The notes: generated by a model not told the origin, from the letters alone. DNA of 64,000 nucleotides from Alphaproteobacteria bacterium (GCA_017534945.1 JAFXVB010000024.1:19546-83545); one strand, 5' to 3'; shown: positions 7,395 to 45,810, counted from the first letter of the stretch. Numbers and translations: made by a program.

Positions 7395-7440
7395 CTGTTT
7401 CTAAACACGTTTCATTTCATCGAAATCATGAACAGATTTT

Positions 7441-8487
7441 TTATTTTGTGACTGTGTCGGCTATTTTTTGTGCTGCACGATTTTCAACCAGTGATTTCTT
7501 TGCCATTTTTTCGAGTCTGGTTGGATTATCAAATAAATCCGTCAATGTGGACGCCAACCAACGCGGTGTGAATTTTGATTGCTCAATCGAAAAACCACCA
7601 CCCAATTTTGCAAATGCATCTGCATTGGCGGCTTGGTCTGGATTGATATTTAATGGCACCAAAATCGCCGCACGACCAATTGTTTCAAGTTCTATGACGG
7701 TACTGGCCCCACTGCGCCCAATGACCAAATCAGCATCTTTGATTGCAGACGCCATATCGCGAATAAAAGACAATACATTTGCATGGATTTTATGTTCTGC
7801 ATAAAACCTTTGCAATTTTTCAACATTTTCTGGGCGTGTTTGGTGTGTCACAAAAATCTTTTTATTTTTCATAGCCGCAATCGCCAAAGGCACAACTTCA
7901 TCTAAAATTTGTGCGCCCAATGATCCACCGGTCACCAACAAATGAGATTTGTTTGGAATTTTTGAACCTGCCACCATCAAAAAATCCGCACGCACAGGTA
8001 ATCCTGTATAAACAATTTTTGTGTTCGTTTTCGCCGGCATACCGTTGACCGTTGGAAAACTGGTCATCAAAGTTTTTACCCAACGCATAGAAAATCTGTT
8101 TGCGCGACCAATCGCCGCATTTTGTTCATGCAAATATGTTGGTATGCGCCACACATGCGCGGCAAACACAACCGGCACAGATGCATATCCACCAAATGCA
8201 ACAACGCGTGCCGGGCGTGAAATTATAAACCGTAAAATCAATGCTGTGGCAGATACCGCAATTTTGAACAATGCGTATATTTGTTTTACACGACTTTTTG
8301 CACCAACGCCCGATGCCCAAATATGAACAATACGCGAACCCGCGGGTGCAGAATCACGCACCATTTTATCAGTTCGCCCATCACAAGAAATTGTAATTTT
8401 ATGACCACGCGATGCTAATTCTGTTGCCGCCGCCATTGCTGGGAACACATGTCCACCGGTTCCACCTGTTGCAATCCATATTTTCAT
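7441..8487 (-). CDS. murG: Undecaprenyldiphospho-muramoylpentapeptide beta-N-acetylglucosaminyltransferase
   Basis: MKIWIATGGTGGHVFPAMAAA… is the GT28 N-terminal signature. 348 aa, with an RBS aaggaaa. Confidence 0.9.
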   Translation of the reverse strand: MKIWIATGGTGGHVFPAMAAATELASRGHKITISCDGRTDKMVRDSAPAGSRIVHIWASGVGAKSRVKQIYALFKIAVSATALILRFIISRPARVVAFGGYASVPVVFAAHVWRIPTYLHEQNAAIGRANRFSMRWVKTLMTSFPTVNGMPAKTNTKIVYTGLPVRADFLMVAGSKIPNKSHLLVTGGSLGAQILDEVVPLAIAAMKNKKIFVTHQTRPENVEKLQRFYAEHKIHANVLSFIRDMASAIKDADLVIGRSGASTVIELETIGRAAILVPLNINPDQAANADAFAKLGGGFSIEQSKFTPRWLASTLTDLFDNPTRLEKMAKKSLVENRAAQKIADTVTK

Positions 8488-8561
8488 TTTGTTTTCCTTT
8501 GTTTTATGATATAATTATAGCATTAGGTATATAAACTTGCAAATAATAAGGAGAATAAAAA

Positions 8562-9089
8562 ATGAACACTATTGAAAGGAGAAACAAGATAAAGTTATTG
8601 TTGCCACGCGCAGTTAGTTATGGTGTTTATCCTGAAAAAACCATAGAAAATTGCAACGAGATTATTAAATTGATTTCCAATGAACCAAATAAAAAATTGC
8701 AACATACATATTTCAAAGCGTTGGCTGATGCATTATTTATGAAAAGTCCCAGTTTCTTTTTGGGAACAAGGGTGGAACATCATGAAAAAATGTTAAAACA
8801 GCAAACACCAGAAATTCGTTCTATGTTGCGTAAATTAAAAAGATTACATTTTGATATAGATTACAAGCCTGGGTGTATGTTAAAAATCAATGCGTTAATA
8901 CGGGCATATGGTGGCACAATTATGACCAAAGAGCAAATGCGTGAACAAAAAAAGGAAAAGTTTGCAAGGGCCGCAGAAAAAGTTTTGAACAATGAAAAAA
9001 TGCCGCGTAAACAGAAAAAAGAATTAAAAAAAGGTATTAAAAAACTGGGGCCTGCTCTTATTATGGGAAAGTTTGTAAACGGCAAATAA
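8562..9089 (+). CDS. Hypothetical protein, lysine-rich C-terminus, inserted in dcw cluster
   Basis: 175 aa with no recognisable family. The C-terminal 50 aa are very basic (…KQKKELKKGIKKLGPALIMGKFVNGK). It runs opposite to the flanking murG/ftsW. Confidence 0.4.
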   Translation: MNTIERRNKIKLLLPRAVSYGVYPEKTIENCNEIIKLISNEPNKKLQHTYFKALADALFMKSPSFFLGTRVEHHEKMLKQQTPEIRSMLRKLKRLHFDIDYKPGCMLKINALIRAYGGTIMTKEQMREQKKEKFARAAEKVLNNEKMPRKQKKELKKGIKKLGPALIMGKFVNGK

Positions 9090-9091
9090 GA

Positions 9092-9120
9092 AAAAACGAC
9101 CATTATGGTCGTTTTTTTTA
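9092..9120. terminator. Bidirectional intrinsic terminator (ORF 8562-9089 / ftsW)
   Basis: aaaacgaccat-t-atggtcgttttttttatt. Confidence 0.6.
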
Positions 9121-9135
9121 TTTCTTTTTTTTATG

Positions 9136-10299
9136 TTATTTCCACTTATCTTCGCGGATTAAAGCCAATGTCAATCCAAAGAGCAAACAAAAGCCCAAGA
9201 AAGAACTGCCCCCAAATGAAATAAACGGTAATGTCATGCCTTTTGGTGGCATTATATGTAATGTTGTTGCCAAATTTAAACAAATCTGCATCGCAAACAA
9301 TGCCGTCGTTCCAGTTATAACATACAAAACAAATTTATCGCGTGCGTTGGATGCCGCTTTCATTAAACGCTTTATAACCAATACGAATAAAAACAATAAT
9401 GCACAACCCGCCAAAGCACCAAAATCTTCAACCAACGCAGCATACACAAAATCGTTTTCAGCCATTGGTAAATTTTCCGCCGCAAATGCTTCGTCACCCA
9501 TACCAAACAATCCACCTTGGCGGATTGCATTAACGGCATAACCAACCTGACTTAATGGATCCAACGGTTTCAAAAAGTCCATAATACGTTCATGAACGTG
9601 ATGAAATAAAAAGAACGCGCCGATACCACCACACGCAAATATTCCAAATAATATCGCCATTATTTTTTTTGGTAAACCCGCCACAAAAAGCATTATTCCC
9701 AACACCAAGAAATACAAAATAGATGTCCCAACATCGGGTTGACGAAACATTATTCCCAAACACATGCAAAACACAAATATATATGGCCACCAAGATATCC
9801 AATTTAATTGCCATGCTTCGCGATTCAAGAAAATATTATCGCCGTATTTTTCCTTCATCTTGGTTAAAAACCATGCTGTTAAAATAATAAATCCGGGCTT
9901 CATAATATCCGATGGCATCAAACGCAATCCGTCCAACACCACCCAACGCGCAGAACCATTAACAACATGCGGATGAACAAATGTCAATAATAACAATGGC
10001 AAACATACTAAAACATTTAACCATGCCAATCGCAATACCCATTTTTGATTAAACATACTGGTTATAAACAAAGTTCCAATTCCAACGATATAAAAAGGAA
10101 ACATTTTCACAAAAAAATAATACCAAGGAAGCGAACCATGAACACGAATAGAATTCGCACTGCCGGTTGATATTGCCGCAATCATACCAACAAAAATCAT
10201 AATACCAATATACAACAACAACCAACGGTCAATACCGAAATACCAATCGGTTAATTGACTGTCATCTGTGCGACGCGCGACTTCTTGAATAACCGCCAT
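9136..10299 (-). CDS. ftsW: Peptidoglycan glycosyltransferase FtsW (SEDS family)
   Basis: 387 aa, polytopic, with FtsW/RodA family motifs. It sits in dcw context next to mraY and murG. Confidence 0.85.
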   Translation of the reverse strand: MAVIQEVARRTDDSQLTDWYFGIDRWLLLYIGIMIFVGMIAAISTGSANSIRVHGSLPWYYFFVKMFPFYIVGIGTLFITSMFNQKWVLRLAWLNVLVCLPLLLLTFVHPHVVNGSARWVVLDGLRLMPSDIMKPGFIILTAWFLTKMKEKYGDNIFLNREAWQLNWISWWPYIFVFCMCLGIMFRQPDVGTSILYFLVLGIMLFVAGLPKKIMAILFGIFACGGIGAFFLFHHVHERIMDFLKPLDPLSQVGYAVNAIRQGGLFGMGDEAFAAENLPMAENDFVYAALVEDFGALAGCALLFLFVLVIKRLMKAASNARDKFVLYVITGTTALFAMQICLNLATTLHIMPPKGMTLPFISFGGSSFLGFCLLFGLTLALIREDKWK

Positions 10300-10322
10300 A
10301 TTCTCCCTCTATCCGTTTTTAC

Positions 10323-11456
10323 CTATGCAAATTTTAACAAAATCAATGCAACCCCAGAAAACAAAATAGACATGATGAAAAATCTATCAACAATTTTTGT
10401 TTCTGCCCAACCCAATTCTTCAAAGTGATGATGCAATGGTGCGCGCAAAAATATGCGTTTTCCGGTGCCTGTGATTTTGCGTGTGATTTTAAAACACATT
10501 GTTTGCAAAAACGAAGACAATAAAATCAAAACCATCATGCCGGCGGCAATACCCATAATAATTTCTGATTTTAATAACATCGCCACAGTTCCCATAAATC
10601 CGCCCAATGCCAATGACCCGACATCGCCCATAAAGATTGATGCAGGTTTCGCGTTATACCACAAAAATCCAAGCGTGGCACCCGCCATTGCGCCCAATGG
10701 TGCATACAGACTGCTGGTTTCTGGTAAAAACACCACACTGTCCATAAAACCAATTCTGGTTGCGCCATATAATGCAACCACCAAAACAATCAAGACCGGC
10801 AAATATAATTTTGATAACATGCCATCTAAACCGTCTGTGATATTTGTTGCATTTGCACTGCCACAAATAACGAAATAGCCGAATATATAATATAAAAAAC
10901 CAAGTGTTATTGACATGCCAAATACATCACCCAAAACCCAAGAATTTAATGGTAAAAACACAGACGACCCAATAATTATCGATAAATCTGGCACATATGG
11001 TGGCATTGTTTTATTTATCAAATATACCAATACAATGACGAATAAAGCCTCCATCCCCAGACGAAATGCCGGCGATAATCCATTTGATGCTTTTTTAGAT
11101 TGTGATGTCACCTTTTTATAATCATCAACAAAACCCAACGCACCAAACATAACCAAAGATAATAACGCAATCCAACCCGCGCTGTTTGATAATGGCATGA
11201 ACAATACAGATGCCAATATCACAGCAATCAAAATCAAAATACCACCCATTGTTGGTGTTCCTGCCTTGGCACGATGTGATTCTGGGACATTTTCACTTAT
11301 TGGCTGACCTTTTTTTTGCCATGCATGCATCCAGCGCACAAATCCACGACCAAAGACCAGCATTATTAAAAATGCAACACCAAACGCCGCCGCAAATTGC
11401 GCCCAACCACTGGCAAATGCATAAAAACCATGAGAAATAAAGTAATCTGCCAACAT
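10323..11456 (-). CDS. mraY: Phospho-N-acetylmuramoyl-pentapeptide transferase
   Basis: MLADYFISHGFYAFASGW… The start was moved to the ATG at 11456, which has an AAGGAG RBS. The listed TTG start at 11480 includes the RBS. Confidence 0.9.
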   Translation of the reverse strand: MLADYFISHGFYAFASGWAQFAAAFGVAFLIMLVFGRGFVRWMHAWQKKGQPISENVPESHRAKAGTPTMGGILILIAVILASVLFMPLSNSAGWIALLSLVMFGALGFVDDYKKVTSQSKKASNGLSPAFRLGMEALFVIVLVYLINKTMPPYVPDLSIIIGSSVFLPLNSWVLGDVFGMSITLGFLYYIFGYFVICGSANATNITDGLDGMLSKLYLPVLIVLVVALYGATRIGFMDSVVFLPETSSLYAPLGAMAGATLGFLWYNAKPASIFMGDVGSLALGGFMGTVAMLLKSEIIMGIAAGMMVLILLSSFLQTMCFKITRKITGTGKRIFLRAPLHHHFEELGWAETKIVDRFFIMSILFSGVALILLKFA

Positions 11457-11532
11457 AGAATTTTCTCCTTTGATACACAATCATTTTATCATAAATTCTA
11501 TGCTTTACCAATATATTTACAGAAAAAATTTA

Positions 11533-13608
11533 TTAGAACACTCCGCCAACTTGGGGCACAGATTGTTTAACCGTTTCGCCGGTCGCATTTATGATAACAG
11601 GCGCAACAATCATCGGTTCGTTTGGCCCCTGGGTTGCTTTGAAAGCCTCGGTTATTATCACACCGTTTGGATCGCGTGTGGCGGCAACGCCATTACTGCG
11701 ATTTACACGCACAAAATGCAATCCATCAGGCACAGAAAATGGTTGGTTTTTCTGGTCGCGCAATGCAACCGTCATAAAATCTGAAAACACATGCGCCGCA
11801 GTATATGACCCGGTTCCCTTACCCAATGGACGCGGCGTATCATATCCCAAATACACACCGGCAATTAAATTTTTAGTAAATCCAATAAACCATGCGTCCT
11901 TTACATCGTTTGTTGTTCCGGTTTTACCAGCGATTGTATGACCCGGCACCATTGCTTGGCGACCGGTTCCGCGTTCAACCGCACCCTGTAATATAGAAAT
12001 CAATTGGTATAAACTTTGTGGGTCTGATAAAGCCGGTCCCAAATCATCATCATCCGGTGGCAACGCAGAATCCGTCCATTGCTCAACCGTCGGTTCATTA
12101 CCGCCGATTGTATGACCATATCTGTCTTGGACATAATCAACAAGGCGAGGTTTCACAACATGCCCACCATTTACAAATGCAGAATATCCCGATACCAAAT
12201 TTTGCAATGTTGTTTCACCCGAACCCAACGCCATAGATAAATTCACATCTTTTAATGATTCAGGATACACGCCAAACCGTTTTGCCACATCAATCGCATC
12301 CTTGACCCCGATTTGTTCAACAAGACGCACAGTCGGTACATTGCGCGATGTTTCCAACGCCAAACGCAACGGAACATCCCCAAGGAATTTTTTATCACTG
12401 TTTTCCGGTTTCCATTCTGTATCAGCATCTTTCCACCCAACAATTGGTGCATCAAGTAAAATAGCCTCTGGCGACATGCCTTTTTCCAACGCAGACAGAT
12501 AAACAAATGGTTTTATCGTACTGCCAATTTGGCGCATTGCTTGGGTTGCACGATTAAACGAACTTTGCGCAAAAGAACGACCACCCGACATTGCCAAAAC
12601 GCGCCCTGTATATGGATTCATAACAATAATTGCACCTTGGAGTTTTTCATCCCCATGACGATTTGCATTGTAATTATCCAATGTTTTATTCAATGCATCA
12701 CTTGCCGCGCGTTGTAATTCAGGAACGATTGTTGTTTTGATATATAAACCTTGGTTATATAAATCTTCGCGCCCGATTGTTTCCAGTAATTGACGGCGAA
12801 CCTCTTCTGCAAAGTATTGGAATTTATCTTCCATTTGGGCGGTAAAACCACTGTTGATATTTAATTCTTCGGCGGCGGCGGCGGTTGCCTCTTCCTTGGT
12901 AATAAAACCTTCATCTTGCATGCGGCGCAACACATAATTGCGACGTTCAACAGCCTTGTCCCGATTATTTGGTGCCTTTGGCAATGATGCCAAAAATGCA
13001 CATTGTGCCAAAGTTAAATCTTTGACCGGTTTATTGAAATACATCAATGCAGCCGAACCCACACCATATGCACGCGCACCCAAAAAGATTTGATTCAAAT
13101 ACAATGTCATAATGTGTTGTTTTGAAAATGAACGTTCCAAACGAAGTGCCAATATTGCCTCTTTCACTTTGCGTGAAATTGTGCGATCAGATGTCAAAAA
13201 GAAATTCTTGGCCACCTGTTGCGTTATGGTTGATGCCCCAGAAAACTTTGTATCAAAACCAAAAACGCGCATAAAATTATTCAAAGATGCCCGTATTATA
13301 CCCTGGATATCAATACCAGGATGTGTCCAGAAATTTTGGTCTTCGGCGGCAATAAATGCATTTACCAATTGGGGTGGCATATCCGCAAAATCAATAAACA
13401 CACGACGTTCTTCGGCATATTCAATCAAAAGCGAACCGTCCGCCGCATAAAGTCGTGTTGCCACCGGTGGCGCATATGTCGCCAATTTTTTATAATCTGG
13501 CAAATCATTTCCATATATAAAAACCAACGCCGCCAATGCAGCAATCATACCGGTAAAACACCAAAATATTAGATTCAAAAAGATGCGCAGAATTTTTTTA
13601 AATGTCAT
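11533..13608 (-). CDS. mrcA: Penicillin-binding protein 1A (bifunctional transglycosylase/transpeptidase)
   Basis: It has a GT51 domain (…RLERSFSKQHIMTLYLNQIFLGARAYGVGSAA…) and the transpeptidase motifs STIKPF (SxxK), SRN and KTGTT. Confidence 0.9.
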   Translation of the reverse strand: MTFKKILRIFLNLIFWCFTGMIAALAALVFIYGNDLPDYKKLATYAPPVATRLYAADGSLLIEYAEERRVFIDFADMPPQLVNAFIAAEDQNFWTHPGIDIQGIIRASLNNFMRVFGFDTKFSGASTITQQVAKNFFLTSDRTISRKVKEAILALRLERSFSKQHIMTLYLNQIFLGARAYGVGSAALMYFNKPVKDLTLAQCAFLASLPKAPNNRDKAVERRNYVLRRMQDEGFITKEEATAAAAEELNINSGFTAQMEDKFQYFAEEVRRQLLETIGREDLYNQGLYIKTTIVPELQRAASDALNKTLDNYNANRHGDEKLQGAIIVMNPYTGRVLAMSGGRSFAQSSFNRATQAMRQIGSTIKPFVYLSALEKGMSPEAILLDAPIVGWKDADTEWKPENSDKKFLGDVPLRLALETSRNVPTVRLVEQIGVKDAIDVAKRFGVYPESLKDVNLSMALGSGETTLQNLVSGYSAFVNGGHVVKPRLVDYVQDRYGHTIGGNEPTVEQWTDSALPPDDDDLGPALSDPQSLYQLISILQGAVERGTGRQAMVPGHTIAGKTGTTNDVKDAWFIGFTKNLIAGVYLGYDTPRPLGKGTGSYTAAHVFSDFMTVALRDQKNQPFSVPDGLHFVRVNRSNGVAATRDPNGVIITEAFKATQGPNEPMIVAPVIINATGETVKQSVPQVGGVF

Positions 13609-13671: not shown

Positions 13672-13795
13672 CCAAAGTACAGAATTCAAAGTTCAATTAA
13701 TGTGTGCGACCAATCAGGTCCCACGAAATTAAAAATTTCGTGGGCAATGTCGCACGGCATTTATTGTACTTTGTTATTTGCACTTTGAACTTTGA
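13672..13795. repeat. MITE-like imperfect inverted-repeat element built from TTCAAAG/TGCAAAG heptamer units, with central hairpin
   Basis: The left arm caaagtacagaattcaaagttcaattaatgtgtgcgac and the right arm gtcgcacggcatttattgtactttgttatttgcactttgaactttg are reverse complements. The central hairpin is cccacgaaatt-aaaa-aatttcgtggg. Related copies lie at 46447-46540, 28215-28256, 51341-51378 and 34186-34199. Confidence 0.65.
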
Positions 13796-13820
13796 AAAAA
13801 CCGCCAAGGCGGTTTTTTCA
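13796..13820. terminator. Intrinsic terminator (mrcA / suhB-like boundary)
   Basis: aaaaccgccaaggcggttttttc. Confidence 0.6.
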
Positions 13821-14767: not shown

Positions 14768-14865
14768 TGTATAATCCTTTGTTTTATATATAAAGCCCCA
14801 AAATTATACATTGTATTTTTCGAATTGCAAGTTTTATTTAGGGACAAGATTGACGTTATGCTATC

Positions 14866-15035
14866 GTCATCCCGCCTTTTCTTATGGTCGTCATCCCGCC
14901 GAAGGGCGGGATCCAGTTGGCACAATGGTGCCAAATTGTGTAATAAAGCCAAATGACGCAAGTTGACCCGTCGGGTCAACTGGATACCGGCCTGCGCCGG
15001 TATGACGAGTTTGAGGGATGCGGTATGACGAGTTG
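14866..15035. repeat. GC-rich composite palindromic element (REP/RPE-like) in rpmE upstream region
   Basis: The direct repeats tcgtcatcccgcc x2 (left) and ggtatgacgag x2 (right) are in inverted orientation. The nested hairpins are cccgcc-gaag-ggcggg, ttggcac-aatg-gtgccaa, gttgacccg-t-cgggtcaac and ataccggc-ctgc-gccggtat. It contrasts with the AT-rich surroundings. Confidence 0.55.
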
Positions 15036-15083
15036 AGTGGCCAGTATAACAGGTCGACTAGTGGTGCCGTTGTGAATAAAAGA

Positions 15084-15117
15084 AAGGGAGGCTTTTCGAA
15101 GACCTCCCTTTTTTTTA
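15084..15117. terminator. Intrinsic terminator downstream of giant ORF
   Basis: aagggaggc-ttttcgaa-gacctcccttttttttt. Confidence 0.6.
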
Positions 15118-15132
15118 ACGGTTAGTGAATTT

Positions 15133-18100
15133 TTATTCTTCGCTGATGTCGACACTGATGATGTCACCATAGTCACCAACAGGTTCACCGCCGACATAAC
15201 AATGGATTTTCGAACCGATGTTTTCCATCCATTCTTTGATAGCCTCATTTTCAGCGTTTTCGTATTTTGCCTTTTGTGCGGTTGATACGATGTCATGCGC
15301 CAACAATGAAGTCAAACCACCGCCAACAACAGCCGCCCCGGCATCCAACGCAAGACGTTTGCCCGCCCCAGATTCTTTGTTATCTGTCGCCACATTTTCA
15401 CAAGTTGTTTCCAATTCAGACAATGTATTCGACAAATTTGCCAATTCTGTGCTGTCCCATTCATATGTATCGGGGTCACGCAATTCGCTAACCGCCGCAA
15501 CATACGCCTGACCTTTTTCTGTTTCAATAACATTCAATCGCAATGCGCTTATTGCCGCAGGCAACCCAGCAACTTCACTGCGGAAATTATTGTATTCTGG
15601 ACCATTATAGGCATAACCGCCGCCCTTTGTAGTTGTTACACTGATTGTATCCGGCAACCCGTTACAATATCCGTCTACGACAGATTGTGCAGGATTATAT
15701 ATAAATGATGGTGTTGTATAACCGCCAAAATTCGAACAATTTTTCTTGGTATACACACCGTTTCCATAATTATAGTATGTATCAACCGTCGATTTTGTAT
15801 AGGTTTTACCATCACTTCCTGTATATGTTGTTGTTCCGGATTTTGTTCTGCCCGCCTTCCAGAATTTATCCAAATGTGATTTTGCAGCATTCAAATAATT
15901 TTGGATTGTTGCCAATTCTGCAACAGAACCTGTGGCATTATATGTTCTTTCACTGATACTTTTCCACAGATTAGATGCCGCAGTCGCATTGTTCACGCAA
16001 CCTGGATAATCTGTTGGGTCGGTTGACGCATCACTGAAATCACACAATGTGCTTACTTTTGTGATAAGTTGCGATACACCGTTTGCTTCATCAACTTGCA
16101 GACCATATTTTGCATCGACGGCGGCAACCGCATCACGTCCTTCGCGTGTCACAGCACCTTTTATTGTATTTAATGTGACACTTGTTGGGATTGTCATTGA
16201 TGCCTTGTTACTGTCAACGGATGATAATTTTGCTTTTGCAGTCCGCGCATAACGTAATGCTTCATCCATTTTTGTTTGGCTTTTGCTGCGAACCGCGGCA
16301 TCAAAGGCTTCACGCGCTTTTTTGGCCTGGTCTGTACATTCTTCGGCAGAATTCGCCTTGGCCATATTCTTGTTCAACAATCCGCCCAATCCAGAACTGG
16401 ACGCGTTGCTTTGCAATGAATCCATGCCCCATGCAGACAACCCAGCACCAAATACACCAGACCCCAAAGTCACCCACAAATCGGTATTTTTATCTTTTTG
16501 TGAACCTTCGCCGGCTTCCTTACGCGCTCTTTCACCAACTTTATCGGTCACAGTTTTGATTGTGTTGTCACTTATCCATGAACCGCATGTGAACGGGTCA
16601 CCGGTTGAAAAGTATGCATTTGTTTCGCCGCCCAAAGCATTTTGAATATCTTTGTCTTCGGACATAACTGTGATTTTCACGCGGCAAAATGAATTATACA
16701 AATCATTACTTTGAACAGACCCGTTTTCGCCCAAACCTTTGGCACCGTAATCACTTTTCATTTTGCTTTTCAATTTTGCCCAAACAAATGTTGCGTTTGG
16801 ATTTGCGCCAGAATTTTGTGCCAAGCAAATGTTTTGTTCTTTGGTCAATTTGGCCTTGTACTGGGCCTGGGCCTCCATTTCGACATCAACCAAAACATCT
16901 TTGAACACAGTATTAATTGCCGAATTTTCTTGGGCAATTGATTTTGAAATCATGTGTGGTGTTGAACAACCGGACACACCGCCTTCTTCGTAATCACAAA
17001 TGTTTGTTCCGGAATTTCCACATTCGCAAATGTGTTTACCGTCTTGGTTAACCTCTTGAACATCTTGCATATATTGATCATTTGCAGATGTGCGCCATGC
17101 AGAACCGACATTTGTTTCATTTCCCCAACCGGTACGGACATCGGCTTCGCCGTCGGCAATACCCATTTTGGCAATCGCCAAACTTTCCGCACAAACATCA
17201 CTGTTTTTAACCGTTAATGCGCATAACCCTTGGACAATTGTGTAATCCAACACACCGCCAACTTTGTTCATAGATTTATTAAAGCCATCACTGGTGGTGT
17301 TGTATGTCGCCAAACTTATATCATTACGGTTACGATAGCAATTTTGATAATTTGAACCGCACATAGATTTTACACAATTTGATACAACATTACCGCACTG
17401 TTTTTTCAATTGAGCAATCGCCGCATCATTATATGCCGTTGATAAATCTGCGTTCAAAGCCGCGACAACCGGCACTTTGTCATCACCAGTATTTGTGTAT
17501 TCTGGGAACAACGCATCAAATGCACCGTCATCACTGTATGTATAATTGTACACATTGCCTTCGGCACTTAAAGTTGCCGCCATATATTTACAATTTGCAT
17601 CGGTATTGACCGCCGCAGTACATCCACGAACAATATCTTTGTATGTATTACCTTTATTAATAGAACCGGTCATGTCTTTGCCGCCAAACACGCGGGAATA
17701 ACATGCCGCCCCCGAACCACCGCCGCATGAACGAATTGCACATGTTTTAAATGTTTCGATGCATTTATCTTTGGCAGTTTTATCGAATTTTTCAACCATA
17801 TCGGTGACCTTGACCCCGATGATGTCTTTTTTATTACGGGTTGAATATGCTTCGTCAAAGATTTCTTCGCGGGTATCAGGATCGGTCAAATCTTTCTTGC
17901 TTGGGGTTTTCGCCTTGAAAGTCATATAGCAATATTGATTTGAACCAATTGTATCTTGGCATGCCGCACGATAGAATTTACGAACAGAACTGGCCGTTTG
18001 GGTTTCTGTCACATTTGCTTCATCAATTGTGGACGATTTTGATTGGTCTGCAACAAAATCAGCCGTTCCCAAAACGCCAAATGTCACACCTTCGACACAA

Positions 18101-18957
18101 CGATATGGGTTTTTCGCGCATGCATTGACAAAGCAACTGTCGATTACTTTATAACAAGTATTGACCGCATTTGCCGCCGCCAATGTTGCACCGTCGGTCA
18201 TCCATTTATATGTATCACCATCGGTTGGTTTTAATTTGTTATTTGCAGGCTTTGTCATAACCTTTTCGCCAAACAATTGTTGAAAACCTTCTTTTTGGCA
18301 ACGCGACAAAGTTGAATCACACATAACCGCCTGTTTTTTGAATTCATCTTCACTGGTGCATAATTCGAAATCTTCGCCACAGACATTATCTTTGGTTAAA
18401 CAATTTTTATATTTTTTAACACAATCCGCGGTGGATAATTTATTACGTGTCGCCGCACCAATAATGTCAATCCCCATAACCGAACCATCGGTTGGATATG
18501 TATAACGCGCAATTTCTGTTTGATTGGTGCCATCAACATAGGAAGATACAGAGGATAAAGCGGAGATATTAGATACACCAAACAAACTGTTTATCGCGGT
18601 TGATGAACATTGATACAAAGTACTGAAACATTCACCCATGTGACCATGGAACAAAACATTTGTTGTGCATTCTTCAAAATCAGAACCACACGCATTGTCA
18701 GCCTTCATACAACTGCGATATTCTTCGATGCATTCAGCATCACTGAGCAGTGGGTTCGCCGTTGTGGACGATGATGATGTGCCGGATGTATTCGCAACAG
18801 TATTATTCGACTTTACCACATTTGACAATGATGCCAATCGACGCGATGCCGCCGTACCAATATTTGGTGTTGTCATTGCAACACGCGCCGCAGAATATGC
18901 CGCACCACACACGCACATTACCGCCAGAAAACTAACCGATTTTTTGAAAAAATGCAT
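15133..18957 (-). CDS. Giant secreted cysteine-rich modular protein (1274 aa), no recognisable family
   Basis: The start was chosen at MHFFKKSVSFLAVMCVCGAAYSAA (RBS aggaga-N6-ATG; signal peptide). There are at least two clear roughly 55-aa six-Cys module repeats: ECIEEYRSCMKADNACGSDFEECT…CFSTLYQC…LFG and DCVKKYKNCLTKDNVCGEDFELCT…CDSTLSRC…LFG. Further Cys-pair motifs follow. The composition is S/T/N/G/K-rich and there is no C-terminal beta-barrel. Confidence 0.7.
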   Translation of the reverse strand: MHFFKKSVSFLAVMCVCGAAYSAARVAMTTPNIGTAASRRLASLSNVVKSNNTVANTSGTSSSSTTANPLLSDAECIEEYRSCMKADNACGSDFEECTTNVLFHGHMGECFSTLYQCSSTAINSLFGVSNISALSSVSSYVDGTNQTEIARYTYPTDGSVMGIDIIGAATRNKLSTADCVKKYKNCLTKDNVCGEDFELCTSEDEFKKQAVMCDSTLSRCQKEGFQQLFGEKVMTKPANNKLKPTDGDTYKWMTDGATLAAANAVNTCYKVIDSCFVNACAKNPYRCVEGVTFGVLGTADFVADQSKSSTIDEANVTETQTASSVRKFYRAACQDTIGSNQYCYMTFKAKTPSKKDLTDPDTREEIFDEAYSTRNKKDIIGVKVTDMVEKFDKTAKDKCIETFKTCAIRSCGGGSGAACYSRVFGGKDMTGSINKGNTYKDIVRGCTAAVNTDANCKYMAATLSAEGNVYNYTYSDDGAFDALFPEYTNTGDDKVPVVAALNADLSTAYNDAAIAQLKKQCGNVVSNCVKSMCGSNYQNCYRNRNDISLATYNTTSDGFNKSMNKVGGVLDYTIVQGLCALTVKNSDVCAESLAIAKMGIADGEADVRTGWGNETNVGSAWRTSANDQYMQDVQEVNQDGKHICECGNSGTNICDYEEGGVSGCSTPHMISKSIAQENSAINTVFKDVLVDVEMEAQAQYKAKLTKEQNICLAQNSGANPNATFVWAKLKSKMKSDYGAKGLGENGSVQSNDLYNSFCRVKITVMSEDKDIQNALGGETNAYFSTGDPFTCGSWISDNTIKTVTDKVGERARKEAGEGSQKDKNTDLWVTLGSGVFGAGLSAWGMDSLQSNASSSGLGGLLNKNMAKANSAEECTDQAKKAREAFDAAVRSKSQTKMDEALRYARTAKAKLSSVDSNKASMTIPTSVTLNTIKGAVTREGRDAVAAVDAKYGLQVDEANGVSQLITKVSTLCDFSDASTDPTDYPGCVNNATAASNLWKSISERTYNATGSVAELATIQNYLNAAKSHLDKFWKAGRTKSGTTTYTGSDGKTYTKSTVDTYYNYGNGVYTKKNCSNFGGYTTPSFIYNPAQSVVDGYCNGLPDTISVTTTKGGGYAYNGPEYNNFRSEVAGLPAAISALRLNVIETEKGQAYVAAVSELRDPDTYEWDSTELANLSNTLSELETTCENVATDNKESGAGKRLALDAGAAVVGGGLTSLLAHDIVSTAQKAKYENAENEAIKEWMENIGSKIHCYVGGEPVGDYGDIISVDISEE

Positions 18958-19058
18958 CTCCATTCTCCTATATTTACGATTTATTTTATCATATTTATGA
19001 AGAAAAGGAAAGAGATTTTTCAAAGTTCAAATATGGAAATAATATTTCTGTATCGTCA

Positions 19059-20042
19059 TTAATTGTCAAGTATGGCTTTCAATTCCAACATATCATCGGG
19101 CAATGGGGCTTTAAAAGTCATCTGTTTACCTGTTATTGGGTGTTTTAACGACAAATATGACGCGTGCAACATTTGACCGTTGTGCGTTTTCAAAAATTCA
19201 AGCAGTTCTGGATTTTTAACACTGCCAAACCGATTGGTGCCACGTCCGTATGTCGGGTCGCATAAAACTGGAAATCCATGCGCAGATAAATGAACACGAA
19301 TTTGATGCGTTCGACCCGTCAATAAATTACAACGAAATTGGGAAATCCCAAAACGCGACCAAACATCGATGACGGTCACCTCTGTGGTGGCGGGTTTGCC
19401 CCCGGACTTTACCATTGTCATTTTTTGTCGATTACGCGATGAACGCGCAATATTGCCGGTAATTGTTGCACTTTCCCAATTCGGCACCCCCCAAACAAAC
19501 GCATCGTATTTACGGGTTAAATCATGATTCGAAAAGGTTTTTACCAATTCGCGATATGCCGCATCACTTTTGGCAAAAATCATAACGCCGGATGTATCTT
19601 TGTCCAAACGATGAACAACCCCGGGACGCACATCGCCACCAATCGCAGACAACGATGTATAACACAATAAATTTTGAACAAGTGTCCCTGTTTTATTTCC
19701 AGCCGATGGATACATCACAACACCGCGTGGTTTGTTTATCACAATAATATCTTCGTCTTGGTATAAAATATCTAAATCAAAATCGCATGATACATTATCC
19801 GCCGCCGCCGCGTTTTTTGGGGAATCAGGTACCAACACAATATACATTTCGCCACCACGCACTTTATCGGCAAATTTAACCGGCGCACCGCCACGCGACA
19901 CAGTGAATTTTTGGATTTCACTGCGCGAAAATTCAGGCATCTTTGTGGCTAAAAATTTATCAAGTCGCATTCCTGCATCTGCATCAACAACAATAAATTC
20001 GCGTTGCATAAATATTCCTATTTCTTTCCAAAATCCGCCCAA
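19059..20042 (-). CDS. rluD: 23S rRNA pseudouridine synthase, RluA/RluD family (S4 domain + catalytic domain)
   Basis: It has the HRLDKDTSGVMIFAK catalytic motif and an N-terminal S4-like region. The likely true start is MQREFIVV at 20008. Confidence 0.85.
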   Translation of the reverse strand: MGGFWKEIGIFMQREFIVVDADAGMRLDKFLATKMPEFSRSEIQKFTVSRGGAPVKFADKVRGGEMYIVLVPDSPKNAAAADNVSCDFDLDILYQDEDIIVINKPRGVVMYPSAGNKTGTLVQNLLCYTSLSAIGGDVRPGVVHRLDKDTSGVMIFAKSDAAYRELVKTFSNHDLTRKYDAFVWGVPNWESATITGNIARSSRNRQKMTMVKSGGKPATTEVTVIDVWSRFGISQFRCNLLTGRTHQIRVHLSAHGFPVLCDPTYGRGTNRFGSVKNPELLEFLKTHNGQMLHASYLSLKHPITGKQMTFKAPLPDDMLELKAILDN

Positions 20043-20506
20043 TCGGGGCCACGTTTACATTTCGATATATCAATTTCAAATTCATAATCGCCGGTCGCAG
20101 GACATGTAAGCAGACCGGTTGTTTCGGCTTGCTCTGCATCTTGGGGAGCATTGCGATATGCAAACTTTATTTCCTTTGGCGCCGCAATACAAACAAGACG
20201 CAAATGTCCAACCATTTCACCCATCGGTGATATCCAAACACGAACACTGTCGGCTTCGCCATAGCAAGGAAATGCGTCCAGGTAATATAAAATTAAACCA
20301 TTTTTCAATAATGTGCGGTCTGTGCCACGAAAATGTCCGGTGTATTGCGATAATGGTAATCCTGTCACGCCATGCCAATCAACAGTCGTGGAAAACAAAC
20401 TGACCCGCGGCCCAGGTAATGGTGCCGGTGGTGTCGGTGTGGTGGTTGTATCTGCGAACGCAGAACAACAAAACAATACAGATAATAACGCGATTAATTT
20501 TCTCAT
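20018..20506 (-). CDS. Secreted hypothetical protein (signal peptide, Thr/Pro-rich linker, Cys-containing domain)
   Basis: MRKLIALLSVLFCCSAFA|DTTTTPTPPAPLPGP… It is the last gene of the pilin-like array, before rluD. Confidence 0.5.
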   Translation of the reverse strand: MRKLIALLSVLFCCSAFADTTTTPTPPAPLPGPRVSLFSTTVDWHGVTGLPLSQYTGHFRGTDRTLLKNGLILYYLDAFPCYGEADSVRVWISPMGEMVGHLRLVCIAAPKEIKFAYRNAPQDAEQAETTGLLTCPATGDYEFEIDISKCKRGPDWADFGKK

Positions 20507-21036
20507 TTTGCGAAATCCCCCAATTTAACCACAATCTTTTTAACGCCAGCCGATGGGGCACGTAAAGTATAAACAAACCCGGCACGCGCACCCGCATCCA
20601 ATAATGTGACCGGTGGCGCAAACTGTTCCGGTGCATTTATTTGTTTGCCATCGCCATCGTATGTCATGATAAACAGGTTCGGCGCACCGTAAATTTCAGG
20701 ACTGCGATTTTCAATTATACCCGATACGATAAAGTGATTTACACCATTTCCGTCCGGCGCCAATGTCGTTTTAACAATCGATGCAGTAAGTGGCGCGTTC
20801 GTCACAGAATTTTTACGATAATGTGTTATTGCAACAACAGAAAAAATTATCGCAGACAGCAAAGCACACAACGCCGCTAAAAATACAAAAAATTTATTTT
20901 TACGATTTGGTGTTTTTACCATAAATGTATGACCGCAAATCGCGCACTTTACGGGCATCGCCGGAATTTTATTCAACGTATATTCTGTTCTACAAAAATC
21001 GCATTTTATTTTCATATCACATCCTTTATAGCACAA
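20503..21036 (-). CDS. Zinc-ribbon (MJ0042-type CxxC…CxxC) + TM + DUF3426-like domain protein
   Basis: The N-terminus MKIKCDFCRTEYTLNKIPAMPVKCAICGHTF carries two CxxC pairs. It is followed by a TM helix (FFVFLAALCALLSAIIFSVVAI) and a roughly 100-aa beta-rich C-domain. This architecture is typical of DUF3426 proteins. Confidence 0.55.
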   Translation of the reverse strand: MCYKGCDMKIKCDFCRTEYTLNKIPAMPVKCAICGHTFMVKTPNRKNKFFVFLAALCALLSAIIFSVVAITHYRKNSVTNAPLTASIVKTTLAPDGNGVNHFIVSGIIENRSPEIYGAPNLFIMTYDGDGKQINAPEQFAPPVTLLDAGARAGFVYTLRAPSAGVKKIVVKLGDFAK

Positions 21037-21037: not shown

Positions 21038-22354
21038 TTATTGCAATTTCAACAAACGATATTTTGCACGAACATCGTTTGCGATATCGTTTAAAGCATT
21101 TTGAAAATCTGCAACCGTCGCATTTGCATTGGCCGCGATTGCACCAAAGCGCCGTCCGGCAAACGTTGTTGAATCAAATTCTTTTTTCGGCAAGAAACTT
21201 ATCATACGATTAAGGTCGCCTAAATACAGGTCTGAAAACACAGCCGACGAAGTGGACGCGTCCCAATAATATCCCGGATTTGTTGGGTCTGTAATTTTAC
21301 TGGAAACAATTAAACGCGGTGTGATTGACCCGGCATATCCAACCGTCACATGTGTTGCATTAACACTGCCGTATGTCATTTTAACAGAACCGTTCACAGT
21401 TAAAATTACAGGTTTCCTTTCCGGATTATCTATACTTAAATTTGGTAATGTCAGGTTTGTCACCAATAAATCGTTCGTTGTAAACGATGAAAATTTTCCT
21501 GTATCCGTCAAAGATAAACGACCCGTAATTTCAAGATTTCTGGAATCAGATGTAAGCGACCCAGACACAGTTGCACTTTTTGTATAAAATTCACTGTCAA
21601 CTGTTGTGCGATTATTAAAAATTAAATTACGCGTATTCAGTTTTCCTATTGTTAAAAATTCATCAAAAGAACCCGAAACAAACGCCATTTTACGAACATT
21701 TAAAACATCATGCGACCCAAGGTTTAATGATGAACGCATTGTTGCATCATCTGGGTTTTGGGACGGCACGCGCCACAAATATAACGCATTATCACGATTT
21801 ATTGTCGTGGTTGTGACAATTCCATTTTTTGCATCTATACCAATATCAGCAACAGATGCACGCCATGTTCCGTTTGCACCATACGCTTTATTACCATCAA
21901 CAAAACCAACATGACCATTTGCCAAGTTCAATATTTGATGTGTACGAAACGGTGATATTTTTTCAGATTCATAAACCACCACACCTTGCAAAGTTGATTG
22001 TCCATTAAAATCTTTGGATTTCAAAACGCGTAATTGATATTTGGTATCTGGGGCATTTATGATTCCGTCGCCCAACCCATATTTTGCCAATTCACCAATT
22101 TCAACACGCACAATATTGCGACCCAATGGTTTTAATAATGTTTCACGATTATCAATTATATACCTTTCCAAAGCCCCTTGGATTTCGGTCATTTGTTTTG
22201 TGATTTCGATATTTTCACGACGTTCAATTGCACCGCGTTGATATTTGAAAACAAACGGAATAATAAGCATTGCCAAAGATACACTAAGCAGTAATTCAAC
22301 CAACATATTACCACTTTGATTTTTTTTCGATAAAGATTTATTTAATATTTTCAT
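21038..22354 (-). CDS. Large type IV pilin-like protein (prepilin-type N-terminus, ~420-aa C-terminal domain), paralog 3
   Basis: The N-terminus is …KKNQSG|NMLVELLLSVSLAMLIIPFV (G-1, E+5, hydrophobic alpha1). The start ATG overlaps the upstream stop (ATGA) at 22351-22354. The LNLGSHDVLNV motif is shared with paralog 2. Confidence 0.6.
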   Translation of the reverse strand: MKILNKSLSKKNQSGNMLVELLLSVSLAMLIIPFVFKYQRGAIERRENIEITKQMTEIQGALERYIIDNRETLLKPLGRNIVRVEIGELAKYGLGDGIINAPDTKYQLRVLKSKDFNGQSTLQGVVVYESEKISPFRTHQILNLANGHVGFVDGNKAYGANGTWRASVADIGIDAKNGIVTTTTINRDNALYLWRVPSQNPDDATMRSSLNLGSHDVLNVRKMAFVSGSFDEFLTIGKLNTRNLIFNNRTTVDSEFYTKSATVSGSLTSDSRNLEITGRLSLTDTGKFSSFTTNDLLVTNLTLPNLSIDNPERKPVILTVNGSVKMTYGSVNATHVTVGYAGSITPRLIVSSKITDPTNPGYYWDASTSSAVFSDLYLGDLNRMISFLPKKEFDSTTFAGRRFGAIAANANATVADFQNALNDIANDVRAKYRLLKLQ

Positions 22355-23607
22355 TGTTCGTCTATGCTTTTTTTTGTTTGCCAATCAGCCGCCATAATCG
22401 CACTGAATTCTTGTTTATCCGGTGTTGCGGATATTGTTGTCCGTCCCAATTTTAATGATGAAAAATTCGGTAATTGATTTGATGGAAATGACCAATTTCC
22501 AATTTTTAATGGCGCAGTTCGCGACATCAATAATTCACCCGATACGGTCAAACCAAAATCACCATAAAACACCATATCCCCGGCCGTCACATATGGCGTA
22601 TACACAGAATTAGAATTTAAAACTGTAAACGCACTGATTGTTCTATTGCTGGACGATTTTAATTTGAACATATTTCCAATTCTTACGGAATTTTTAACGG
22701 TTGCACGATCTGTGATTACCGTTCCAGAATTACTGAAACTGTTTCCGTTCAGGTTGTTTGCGGTAATATTACGAAAACCGCTGATATCGCCCAGCGCACG
22801 AATTGTATCAATGTGCGCATCGGCACCTTGGACATTTGCCCCAGATGAAAAATAAATTGCATCTGCGTTTACATCATCAGCCACCAGAAATGTTGTATTG
22901 ATATTTTTAACATCCACAGAATTAACATCCAAAGTTCCAACATTTAATAAATCTTTGCCGCCCATATTCAAATTACGCAACATAGCGTTCAAGTTGTTTT
23001 TATTTTCTTGCATGTCATCAACATTGGTATTGTCTTTGGATTTATTAATTATTGTATCTGTGGCGCCACGATGCAGAAAATTCATCCTGTCCATTGTTGC
23101 AAAATTATGCGACACACGATATATCAAATTTCCCGGTTTGAATTCTGGCCCCGATACAGCCCATGTATTTCCATACGCAACACCGTCATCACCAACAATC
23201 GCGGCATTACCGCCGATTTGACGCGCAATTTGATTCGTCCTTAGCAAAGAAGACGATATATCAAACCCCAGATAAACATCGGTAATTGTTGTTCCACGAA
23301 ATTGTCTTTTATCAATAAAACCACTGGATATAATTGGCGAAATTTCTTTTAAGTCGTCCGCCGTCAATTGTATTTCTGTGTCACCATCCCAATTTTCTTG
23401 GTGTGTACGAACAAAGTTTAATACACTGTCTTGTAAATCAACAATTTTTTGTGCCACAGAAATATTTTCAATATCATTGTATGTGCGTGTAATTTGTTTA
23501 TACATAAATGGTGCCGCAACCGCAATAATAGATATTGCCAACACAACCTCTATCAATGATGCGCCACGCGACATGTCGTTAAAAATTTTCGTTTTATATA
23601 CAGTCAC
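22351..23607 (-). CDS. Large type IV pilin-like protein, paralog 2
   Basis: MSRG|ASLIEVVLAISIIAVAAPF is a canonical class-III signal (G-1, E+5). 418 aa, with an N/S/T/G-rich beta-type C-domain containing LNMGGKDLLNV. Confidence 0.65.
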   Translation of the reverse strand: MTVYKTKIFNDMSRGASLIEVVLAISIIAVAAPFMYKQITRTYNDIENISVAQKIVDLQDSVLNFVRTHQENWDGDTEIQLTADDLKEISPIISSGFIDKRQFRGTTITDVYLGFDISSSLLRTNQIARQIGGNAAIVGDDGVAYGNTWAVSGPEFKPGNLIYRVSHNFATMDRMNFLHRGATDTIINKSKDNTNVDDMQENKNNLNAMLRNLNMGGKDLLNVGTLDVNSVDVKNINTTFLVADDVNADAIYFSSGANVQGADAHIDTIRALGDISGFRNITANNLNGNSFSNSGTVITDRATVKNSVRIGNMFKLKSSSNRTISAFTVLNSNSVYTPYVTAGDMVFYGDFGLTVSGELLMSRTAPLKIGNWSFPSNQLPNFSSLKLGRTTISATPDKQEFSAIMAADWQTKKSIDEQ

Positions 23608-24949
23608 TTTTTCCCGCCATTAAACATTGTTTTGCATTTATTCTTTGTTCAAGACGCGCCCAAAACATATACTCGCACAATATATGTTGCGCCAATGATG
23701 AAGAATTATATGTTTCACCCAAACTTGCAATCATATCACGACAATTCATTACTGCATCGTCATCTTTCTTTGGATTTTTTAAAATTGCGAAACTATCGTT
23801 GCTGATGCCTGATACAGACACATCTGGTAATACTGTTGTACTGGCCGGGCGAATATCAATAATCACAGAACCATTATCACCCGCATCCAATGCTTTGGAT
23901 GTTTGGTCGCGCAATGTAATATGCGATGCAATGATTGAACCGGTGGAAATACCACTGGATGTATTATAAGAAACACTGGTACCATCGATATACACATCTT
24001 GACCACTGCTGACATTAAGGTACGAACCAACCTCTAATGTTTCTACACTTAACGCGATATGTTCTGTTTCCAAATTACCACGCACATCCCATGTAACCGG
24101 CCCAGTAAACCCAGTATGTCCCGCCGTCAAATCAAACGAATAAACCGATGCGGAATTCGATTCAAAATTTCCTGTGGAACCGTATTCTGCAACCGTTTTT
24201 CCAAACACATTGTTTGCCTTTAACGAACCACGCGTTAATGCCAATGCCGACCCACCAGATTTAGATTGAAAAATACTTTTGTTCGAATTTAATATTCCTA
24301 TTTTATTTTTAGAACCACGATCTGCTTCATTACCAAATATATCCAAAGTATCAAATGCCGCCGTTTCTGCAACCAAGTTATGTCCAACAACTGTATTCGT
24401 ATTTTCTATTACAAAATTATTCATTTCCAAATCGGTTAAAAATGCAGAATTATTTATATCCGGTTCATTACGACGAACAACATCTTGGTATAATGTATTT
24501 AACGGTACACCAACCATTAAACCGGTTGTGGTGCGTTCCGCATAAAAACCGATTCTGCGAACCATTTCTGCAATTTGAATACCGGTTAAATTACCACCAT
24601 CAATCATCAAAGAACCACCAACACCATTTTCATCTTTATCAACAACCAAGAAAATATTTTGTCCAAATGCCGTTTGTGGAATATATCCCAACGGCAATCC
24701 ATACGGTTCCAAAATATCTGTAAAATCTTTGCCACGAATCGTTGTTTTTCCGTATGGCAATGCATCTACATTTTCACGAATAAATATGCGCGCCGCAGTT
24801 TGTGCAACATCAACCTGGTGCACAGAAGAATACATTTTCGCATCCATGTCATTTGTAACCAAACGATTTGTTAATGTTGGCATAAACACAAACAGCAACG
24901 ATACCGCCAATAATGCCTGTAATAAAAAATTTCCGCGTTGTTGATGCAA
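23594..24949 (-). CDS. Large type IV pilin-like protein, paralog 1 (E5 replaced by Q)
   Basis: MHQQRG|NFLLQALLAVSLLFVF… 451 aa with a G/S/T/N-rich C-domain and a C-terminal Cys cluster (…NCRDM…LCEYMF…CLMAGKSDCI). Confidence 0.55.
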   Translation of the reverse strand: MHQQRGNFLLQALLAVSLLFVFMPTLTNRLVTNDMDAKMYSSVHQVDVAQTAARIFIRENVDALPYGKTTIRGKDFTDILEPYGLPLGYIPQTAFGQNIFLVVDKDENGVGGSLMIDGGNLTGIQIAEMVRRIGFYAERTTTGLMVGVPLNTLYQDVVRRNEPDINNSAFLTDLEMNNFVIENTNTVVGHNLVAETAAFDTLDIFGNEADRGSKNKIGILNSNKSIFQSKSGGSALALTRGSLKANNVFGKTVAEYGSTGNFESNSASVYSFDLTAGHTGFTGPVTWDVRGNLETEHIALSVETLEVGSYLNVSSGQDVYIDGTSVSYNTSSGISTGSIIASHITLRDQTSKALDAGDNGSVIIDIRPASTTVLPDVSVSGISNDSFAILKNPKKDDDAVMNCRDMIASLGETYNSSSLAQHILCEYMFWARLEQRINAKQCLMAGKSDCI

Positions 24950-27058: not shown

Positions 27059-27084
27059 CAACAACGTTGCAAAGGGGGGAATTT

Positions 27085-42190: not shown

Positions 42191-42247
42191 AAATATTTTT
42201 ATTTCGTGATTTATCTCTGGACAGTTTTATGGTATAATAATAACACC

Positions 42248-44530: not shown

Positions 44531-44534
44531 TTTT

Positions 44535-45797: not shown

Positions 45798-45810
45798 AAA
45801 AGGAGAAAAT

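Follow-up and report, generated by a model that had tools for sequence, protein, structure and literature searches.

We analysed a gene for a cysteine-rich protein in a stretch of 64,000 nucleotides (nt) from an Alphaproteobacteria bacterium (GCA_017534945.1, JAFXVB010000024.1:19546-83545), here called the window. The product of 1274 amino acids (aa) has a conserved body with five six-cysteine modules and a hypervariable head, and a comparison of homologous loci indicates that head alleles are exchanged between strains by recombination. We give about an even chance to the reading that it is a polymorphic, lineage-specific, Sec-exported surface or contact protein of Candidatus Enterousia and the order Rs-D84.

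The initial annotation of the window had described a secreted product of 1274 aa, encoded by the largest gene present and belonging to no recognisable family. All of this was borne out. The open reading frame (ORF) is intact, its product agrees in length and sequence with the NCBI protein IKP24_02710 (P0001) of the metagenome-assembled genome (MAG), and a Sec-type signal peptide is found; the second largest gene encodes MutS with 837 aa. Searches of Pfam (best E 0.035) and NCBIfam (best E 0.21) assigned no family, a sequence search of the PDB gave no match, and a profile of 119 relatives run against the PDB yielded coiled-coil matches at noise level only.

With the 119-sequence alignment, aa 75-1274 were modelled by AlphaFold2 (mean predicted local distance difference test, pLDDT, 76; predicted template modelling score 0.39). 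The cysteine modules were predicted as helical (pLDDT about 85-92). For the head, a bundle of helices with beta inserts was predicted with confidence (pLDDT about 90-96); its two ends meet at glycine-rich segments. The model further contains an alpha/beta domain, built of a sheet and a helix of 42 residues, and a tail of one helix and three short strands. With Foldseek, nothing below E 0.1 was detected for the full model in the PDB and in BFVD (viral structures), nor for the alpha/beta domain modelled alone. The architecture and fold of the protein are without detectable precedent in Pfam, the PDB and the viral structure sets.

Relatives are numerous within one lineage. A word-indexed protein search returned more than 766 of them, unnamed or labelled 'hypothetical', from Alphaproteobacteria of gut MAGs. 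A HMMER scan with the family profile found 281 proteins at E <1e-3 among 1.84 billion representatives, and no Pfam domains were detected in the distant members of this set. The family is encoded in 247 GTDB stretches (one genome per species), one of them on a closed chromosome of 958,618 bp. The carriers are classified as Candidatus Enterousia, uncultured Alphaproteobacteria or 'Rickettsiales' and come from rumen, faeces and caeca; phage or plasmid relatives were not found by tblastn. As judged from these carriers, the family is confined to Ca. Enterousia and the order Rs-D84. Enterousia belongs to this order, with genomes of 0.75-1 Mb that are rich in unknown membrane-bound proteins (PMC12306168). 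For these genomes the absence of the TCA (tricarboxylic acid) cycle, of a respiratory chain and of standard transporters was described, and a partner-dependent lifestyle was suggested (PMC12306168).

Cysteine modules and hypervariable head

The N-terminus MHFFKKSVSFLAVMCVCGAAYSAA shows two lysines, a hydrophobic core with a Kyte-Doolittle hydropathy (KD) of up to 1.67 and an AxA-like end, and the family consensus of the signal peptide is MxFFKNSVSFIAVMxVxxAAxAA. A lipobox of the type [LVI][ASTVI][GAS]C is absent from the N-terminus. Repeated six-cysteine modules had been noted before, with two copies quoted. These two, A1 and A2, were confirmed (42% identity, E 6e-17), but the count has to be raised to five: three further copies follow a second pattern, C-x6-C-x4-C-x6/7-C ... 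C-x9-C. We presume a likeness of the C-x6-C pairs on neighbouring helices to the Helicobacter cysteine-rich/Sel1-like repeats and to the twin-CxnC hairpins of CHCH proteins, where helix-turn-helix units are locked by cysteines about two helical turns apart. Yet neither group gave a profile match, and module size and cysteine spacing differ, with six cysteines per module in the protein studied here.

Conservation and parity of the cysteines were counted over 180 full-length relatives. The module cysteines together with C711, C758, C791 and C1253 are kept in 99-100%, far beyond chance, and those of the signal region poorly (C15 37%, C17 27%). The cysteine total of the mature protein is even in 166 of the 180 relatives and that of the variable region in 171. 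Furthermore, the facultative pair C646/C664 is gained and lost jointly (both present in 61, neither in 112, mixed in 7). This even parity argues that disulfides are formed and that the whole protein, including its variable part, lies outside the cytoplasm; together with the signal peptide it supports a disulfide-stabilised extracytoplasmic domain array, where the initial annotation had proposed an extracellular one. The conserved body holds 35 cysteines, an odd number, and the tail the single near-invariant C1253, which suggests a disulfide between tail and body. The tail probably folds back and is linked in this way to the alpha/beta domain.

The conservation profile over 119-180 relatives is high for aa 75-800, collapses with many insertions and deletions at aa 875-1175 and is high again at aa 1200-1274. 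Across the family the head measures 0-374 aa (median 180), with an even number of cysteines. Locus L086 from a close strain illustrates the boundary. Upstream, 12.7 kb of its DNA show 94.7% identity to the window; downstream, identity is 90-94%, and blastn detected no match whatever for window positions 15367-16258. In the codon-level profile, identity amounts to 95-100% up to about aa 730, declines through the first glycine-rich segment, stays at the random level for aa 851-1206 and reaches about 80% in the tail.

Synonymous divergence (dS) between the window and L086 is 1.88 for the head and 0.21 for the modules. A head dS so far above that of the modules argues for old alleles, imported by recombination, rather than for fast evolution in place. 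The ratio of nonsynonymous to synonymous divergence (dN/dS) is 0.04-0.12 in the body, as would be expected under strong purifying selection, and 0.19-0.33 in the head. The same picture was obtained across the family. Where bodies agree at 95% or more (67 protein pairs), the heads range from no detectable similarity up to 94% identity, and there are converse pairs with heads closer than bodies, such as P0028/P0043 (body 89%, head 97%). Similarity of body and head is thus uncoupled, which indicates that alleles are swapped and that the mosaic of conserved and variable parts is of recombinational origin.

Sources for new heads were looked for in the window. Silent copies of the variable region were found neither by tblastn nor by blastn in the 64 kb, and no template/variable repeat of the type known from diversity-generating retroelements (DGRs) lies elsewhere in the window. 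No reverse transcriptase was detected among the scanned ORFs of the window; several short ORFs were left unscanned. From a DGR target the gene also differs in that head variation includes large insertions and deletions, and in that no repeat pair is present in the window.

Beyond the tail, L086 realigns only just upstream of rpmE. The slot between the terminator of the gene and rpmE (window about 14800-15070, minus strand) does not align among close strains. In the window it is occupied by palindromic, GC-rich repeats resembling miniature inverted-repeat transposable elements (MITEs). Elsewhere the same slot contains genes for GIY-YIG or DUF559 (Vsr-like) endonucleases (L001 13896-14213; L087 14075-14461; L085 5632-6093). 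Endonuclease genes and repeats are possibly selfish elements at a recombination hot spot. The features of the gene are compiled in Table 1.

Table 1 Features of the cysteine-rich gene and its product, in window positions
Feature	Position	Strand	Remarks
Coding sequence	15133..18957	-	1274 aa + stop; cysteine-rich modular protein without known family
Extended -10 element TGATAAAAT	18983..18991	-	TG at 18991-18990, hexamer TAAAAT at 18988-18983; ends 25 nt before ATG
Shine-Dalgarno sequence AGGAG	18965..18969	-	GGAG 7-8 nt 5' of ATG in nearly all loci
Sec-type signal peptide, aa 1 to ~24	18886..18957	-	Predicted from hydropathy; no lipobox
Ser/Thr/Asn-rich linker, aa 25-70	18748..18885	-	Conserved motif SRRL(P/A)SLS; R25 and R40 invariant, P42 near-invariant
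Six-Cys module A1, aa 76-127	18577..18732	-	C-x6-C-x6-C-x6-C-x12-C-x6-C; missing from ~25 distant relatives
Six-Cys module A2, aa 179-230	18268..18423	-	Spacing as A1; Cys 99% conserved
Six-Cys module B1, aa 268-343	17929..18156	-	C-x6-C-x4-C-x6-C ... C-x9-C
Six-Cys module B2, aa 399-456	17590..17763	-	Second module type
Six-Cys module B3, aa 521-589	17191..17397	-	Cys 100% conserved
Conserved alpha/beta domain, aa 636-820	16498..17052	-	Predicted 42-residue helix and beta-sheet; C644/C654, C711, C758, C791
Glycine-zipper-like segment 1, aa 828-860 (WVTLGSGVFGAGLSAWGMDSL...GLGGLL)	16378..16476	-	From alignment; AlphaFold2 pLDDT <50; median KD 1.24
Hypervariable head, aa 861-1196	15370..16377	-	Predicted helical bundle with beta inserts
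Glycine-zipper-like segment 2, aa 1201-1225 (LALDAGAAVVGGGLTSLLAHDIV)	15283..15357	-	Median KD 1.52
Conserved C-terminal tail, aa 1226-1274	15136..15282	-	Predicted helix and three short strands; near-invariant C1253 in ...GSKIHCYVGG..YGD...
Intrinsic terminator	15075..15108	-	Hairpin GGGAGGUCUUCGAAAAGCCUCCC (15086-15108), then UUUCUUUUAUU

Proposed role and contact with membranes

For a surface or contact role we infer the following mechanism. The body, consisting of the five disulfide-stapled helical modules, the alpha/beta domain and the back-folded tail, would serve as rigid stalk or scaffold. The head, placed as a helical bundle between the two glycine-zipper-like segments and occurring in many old allelic classes exchanged by homologous recombination, would mediate strain-specific contact with a partner cell, with a host surface or with a selective agent such as an antibody or a phage. 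At the base of the head, the glycine-zipper pair may act as membrane-interacting anchor or hinge. A role in surface interaction had been suggested before, and the recombining hypervariable region lends it indirect support.

Several points weigh against this role. The location in the envelope is one that we infer, and we identified no way for the protein to cross the outer membrane: the window encodes no type II secretion system (T2SS) or type IV pilus (T4P) machinery, and the protein has no C-terminal beta-barrel. The statement of the initial annotation that signatures of autotransporters and of two-partner secretion are missing holds, with no Pfam match, a C-terminus of one helix and three short strands and no Omp85-type neighbour. 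In the head dN/dS stays below 1, so that this crude pairwise comparison does not point to positive selection. Polymorphism would also be conceivable in a periplasmic protein, for instance one targeted by a phage or bacteriocin. In addition, this anaerobe without a respiratory chain may lack a Dsb-type oxidation system. Finally, the glycine-rich segments are only moderately hydrophobic, the median KD of segment 1 being barely above the maximum of 1.17 in the rest of the protein, and they are left disordered by AlphaFold2; they may be mere flexible linkers.

Some of these points would fit a periplasmic or outer-membrane-tethered envelope scaffold as well, in which the disulfide-stapled modules form a rigid spacer and the variable region is a landing site of phages or bacteriocins or is only weakly constrained. 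We regard such a scaffold as quite unlikely. The strong purifying selection on the body, the presence of the gene in nearly all loci examined and in 247 GTDB species, and the failure to identify an export route across the outer membrane speak in its favour. So does the finding that the periplasmic face of the outer membrane is where glycine-zipper lipoproteins act (bioRxiv 10.64898/2025.12.22.696046). The neighbouring cell-wall genes for PBP1A, MraY, FtsW and MurG would also suit it, but they form a separate conserved cluster beyond the terminator of the gene. Relaxed constraint is disfavoured by the ninefold synonymous excess and by the shuffling of discrete head alleles between near-identical strains, which point to maintained classes; moreover, the fold of the head is predicted with confidence, and its cysteines remain paired.

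Three other locations or functions were considered and set aside. A hairpin in the inner membrane with a cytoplasmic head was ruled out by the even number of head cysteines in 171 of 180 proteins. S-layer proteins are typically poor in cysteine, and an S-layer protein was judged unlikely because of the very high cysteine content. A cysteine-rich cross-linker of the envelope as in Chlamydia was likewise judged unlikely, since a full set of peptidoglycan genes lies next door.

Among the points in favour of the proposed surface or contact role are the two glycine- and alanine-rich, moderately hydrophobic segments on either side of the variable stretch. In homologues richer in glycine, each segment matched one helix of Gly-zipper_Omp or of the glycine zipper 2TM domain, always below threshold (E 3e-4 to 1e-2). 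The glycine zipper 2TM profiles (PF05433, PF13488) reached at best 16-21 bits against cut-offs of 24-25, in these glycine-richer homologues only, and no glycine zipper profile matched the window protein itself. The glycine zipper 2TM lipoproteins (SlyB, YfgH, PCP and the 17-kDa antigen of Rickettsia) have outer-membrane helices of the GxxxG type, rich in glycine and alanine. For SlyB/YfgH-type lipoproteins the zippers were described as helical hairpins embedded in the outer membrane (bioRxiv 10.64898/2025.12.22.696046). In contrast to these lipoproteins, the protein studied here lacks a lipobox, carries a folded domain of 180-370 aa (variable domain of 0-374 aa across the family) where their helices are joined by a tight turn, and is 5-10 times larger.

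A more specific version of the surface role can be formulated on this basis. The zipper segments could form an alpha-helical hairpin in the outer membrane, with the recombining head on the surface and the body in the periplasm, and thereby allow docking onto partner or host cells. We consider this arrangement rather improbable. If true, it would represent a novel type of surface display, with neither a beta-barrel nor a lipid anchor. It would then mean strain-specific docking by a gut alphaproteobacterium of about 0.9 Mb, which possibly taps its partners and possibly does so with the pilin-like/ZitP-like apparatus described below.

The same segments could instead, after export, enter the membrane of a partner or host in the manner of glycine-zipper toxins or alpha-pore-forming toxins, so that the protein would act as effector or conduit and supply metabolites to a transporter-poor bacterium. 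This has little probability in our view. Glycine-zipper-like segments flanking a long helical bundle recall ClyA, XaxA and YaxA, toxins with a long antiparallel helical bundle and a hydrophobic, membrane-inserting end, and the likeness is weak and non-significant. Profile comparison with XaxA/YaxA gave E 0.19-0.42, and ClyA was met with Foldseek at E about 4 with a TM-score below 0.15, so that every score is at noise level. Glycine-zipper motifs were reported in membrane-damaging effectors (PMC12955049), and the absence of standard uptake systems together with the proposed dependence on partners (PMC12306168) would give such a conduit a use. On the other hand, the hydrophobicity of segment 1 is marginal, and the toxins named have no large disulfide-rich domain; a body of 750 aa with strictly conserved disulfides is not obviously needed by a pore former. 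No gene for a partner subunit was found at the locus, and the terminator, repeats and rpmE follow downstream where a partner subunit or immunity gene might be expected.

This downstream region also bears on a polymorphic toxin of the CdiA/Rhs type, with a conserved delivery body and a variable toxic module. The sharp boundary between conserved and variable parts, the recombinational replacement that reaches the 3' flank, and the GIY-YIG and DUF559 endonuclease-type genes just downstream in some strains would be compatible with it. However, the variable part lies inside the protein, with a conserved tail after it, and the Pfam search gave no match to a toxin domain. No immunity-like ORF was detected downstream of the gene in the window, where the terminator, the MITE-like palindromes and rpmE are found instead, and the endonuclease genes occur sporadically and look like selfish elements rather than immunity genes. 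Hence, a toxin of this type is highly improbable.

Transcription of the gene and the pilin-like block

The ORF spans 15133..19023 (minus strand), and translation from the ATG at 18957 gives the 1274 aa. Another in-frame ATG upstream of it, at 18963, occurs in the window only; other loci read ...CAGGAGATG at this place. The extended -10 element is preceded by a T-rich tract. Its pattern TGnTAnnnT is present within 60 nt 5' of the ATG in 86 of 87 homologous loci, against a background of 8% of 60-nt windows; in 81 of these loci its end is 25-27 nt away from the start codon. It is also kept in loci where the upstream gene is not rluD. A sigma-70-like TTGACA-17-AATATT at 19069-19041 was dropped as promoter candidate, since 86/87 loci retain the extended -10 element at a constant spacing. 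The terminator directly follows the stop codon (dG -17.9 kcal/mol, z -4.2; none of 200 shuffled sequences equally stable).

The gene thus has its own conserved promoter and terminator and, with its strong Shine-Dalgarno sequence, forms an independent transcription unit. The initial annotation had placed it on the same strand as rluD and about 100 nt behind it, which agrees with the gap of 101 nt, and had considered co-transcription. The promoter and terminator of the gene speak against the latter. A terminator was looked for in the gap and none was found; therefore read-through from rluD into the cysteine-rich gene is possible.

An exact inverted repeat of 16 nt, TTTGAACTTTGAAAAA, was noticed at 13784-13799 and 19016-19031. 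One copy of TTTGAACTTTGAAAAA lies in the T-rich region 5' of the promoter of the gene, the other beside a bidirectional terminator between a gene of the inositol-monophosphatase family and the PBP1A gene. Chance alone would yield about 0.01 matches of this kind in 7 kb, although the sequence concerned is AT-rich.

Decay to a pseudogene, a possibility raised in the initial annotation, was not seen, the gene being intact in more than 80 of 85 loci. One genome, RUG14746 (L001/L006), has a homologue broken near the end of the variable region (L001 13311-13625), with the second zipper segment and the C-terminal tail in a separate, overlapping ORF of 104 aa; this split is either a frameshift or an assembly error. 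At two loci, L014 and L022, no C-terminal tail was detectable.

Upstream of the gene lies a block of three prepilin-like proteins, a ZitP-like protein with zinc ribbon and transmembrane (TM) helix, a secreted protein of 162 aa, and rluD. This block adjoins the gene in about 72 of 83 loci. The distant locus L085 also has the block next to the gene, there on the opposite side, so that adjacency survives rearrangement. In about 10 loci the gene is present and the block is absent within 10 kb upstream; in L020, L063 and L083 the neighbours are genes for threonyl-tRNA synthetase and a SPOR protein upstream and LpxD downstream. The dnaX gene is also syntenic with the cysteine-rich gene (62 loci), and thus much of the gene order reflects the general collinearity of reduced genomes. 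Locus L084 of a distant lineage carries two divergently oriented paralogues beside ftsQ/ftsA, at 6855-9560 (minus strand) and 10001-13414 (plus strand). They comprise 901 and 1137 aa, are about 25% identical to the window protein and indicate that duplication is possible in the family, which is not bound to the pilin block.

The three prepilin-like genes overlap (window 21038-24949, minus strand) and encode proteins of 451, 418 and 448 aa with the N-termini G|NFLLQ, G|ASLIE and G|NMLVE. These large proteins match only weakly to Shufflon_N and to N-terminal regions of GspI, ComGE and HpsC. The ZitP-like protein of 177 aa (20503-21036, minus strand) has an MJ0042-type zinc ribbon (MJ0042_CXXC of NCBIfam, 23.7 bits at a cut-off of 20.9) and one TM helix. 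A faint match to DUF3426 in its periplasmic part was seen in a homologue only. By this architecture of zinc ribbon, TM helix and faint DUF3426 it resembles the polar organiser ZitP of Caulobacter, the periplasmic DUF3426 domain of which is required for pilus biogenesis (PMC5182063). The secreted protein of 162 aa (20018-20506, minus strand) contains cysteine, and rluD stands directly behind it (overlapping or within about 10 nt). An ORF of 158 aa at 27067-27543 (plus strand) has the classic N-terminus of a type IV pilin (GRSLIEMLGVLTIGAV...) and gave no match in Pfam, NCBIfam or the PDB. It adjoins dnaX, and genes of the OmpA family and for an OmpH-like protein come next.

The initial annotation had named the protein a candidate adhesin or effector of this pilin-like system. 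That claim could not be established, as gene order is the only evidence for it. As pilus tip adhesin of the PilY1/PilC type, the protein would be presented by a fibre of the three pilin-like proteins, or would prime it, with the head as receptor end. The adjacency of the block and its survival in L085, the requirement for the DUF3426 domain of Caulobacter ZitP in pilus biogenesis (PMC5182063) and the separate pilin-like gene nearby favour this explanation, which we nevertheless regard as unlikely. PilY1/PilC is likewise a large secreted protein encoded beside minor-pilin-like genes, but its C-terminal seven-bladed beta-propeller (Neisseria_PilC / PilY1) was not matched and no vWA domain was found. 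Compared with it, the window protein is mostly helical, cysteine-rich and provided with a C-terminal tail of 75 aa and its own promoter. Besides, the conserved promoter and terminator, the loci without the block, the general collinearity and the synteny of dnaX all weaken the link. No pilus assembly ATPase, platform, secretin, prepilin peptidase or other T2SS/T4P machinery was found in the window, and the pilin-like genes are not polymorphic between strains (window compared with L086). Type IV pilus genes were reported for a different lineage only, not for Rs-D84 (PMC12306168).

Two further regions of the window were noted. At 42110-46416 (plus strand) a coupling protein of type IV secretion systems of the VirD4/TraG type (806 aa) is encoded, followed by a lipoprotein-like ORF of 420 aa without known function and by an LpoB-like lipoprotein. 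L002 and L020 carry the coupling-protein gene at a distance of a few kb from the pilin block. An ORF of 201 aa at 6311-6916 (plus strand), amid cell-wall genes, contains a phage Mu F-like domain (E 1.4e-9) and may be a prophage remnant.

Comparison with variable surface proteins and meaning for Enterousia

The adhesins BabA, SabA and HopQ of Helicobacter are secreted proteins with a helical-bundle ectodomain, a strain-variable insertion and an allelic diversity driven by recombination. The protein described here resembles these Hop adhesins in the helical bundle, in disulfide-clasped elements, in a variable head and in alleles generated by recombination. It differs from them by the missing C-terminal beta-barrel anchor, and no sequence match exists; the only structural trace is HopQ with a Foldseek E of about 5. 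In kind it would be a variable surface protein, and its architecture and fold are new as far as detectable.

Enterousia and other Rs-D84 bacteria are widespread in the guts of humans, livestock and poultry and possess hardly any recognisable transporters (PMC12306168). The gene of 3.8 kb is a candidate for the interface to the partners on which they presumably depend, as it is intact in hundreds of species and combines a strong-looking promoter and about 35 invariant cysteines with a swapped head. Extensive disulfide bonding in an obligate gut anaerobe would be an unusual case. Furthermore, the protein offers a natural marker for strain typing of these uncultured bacteria.

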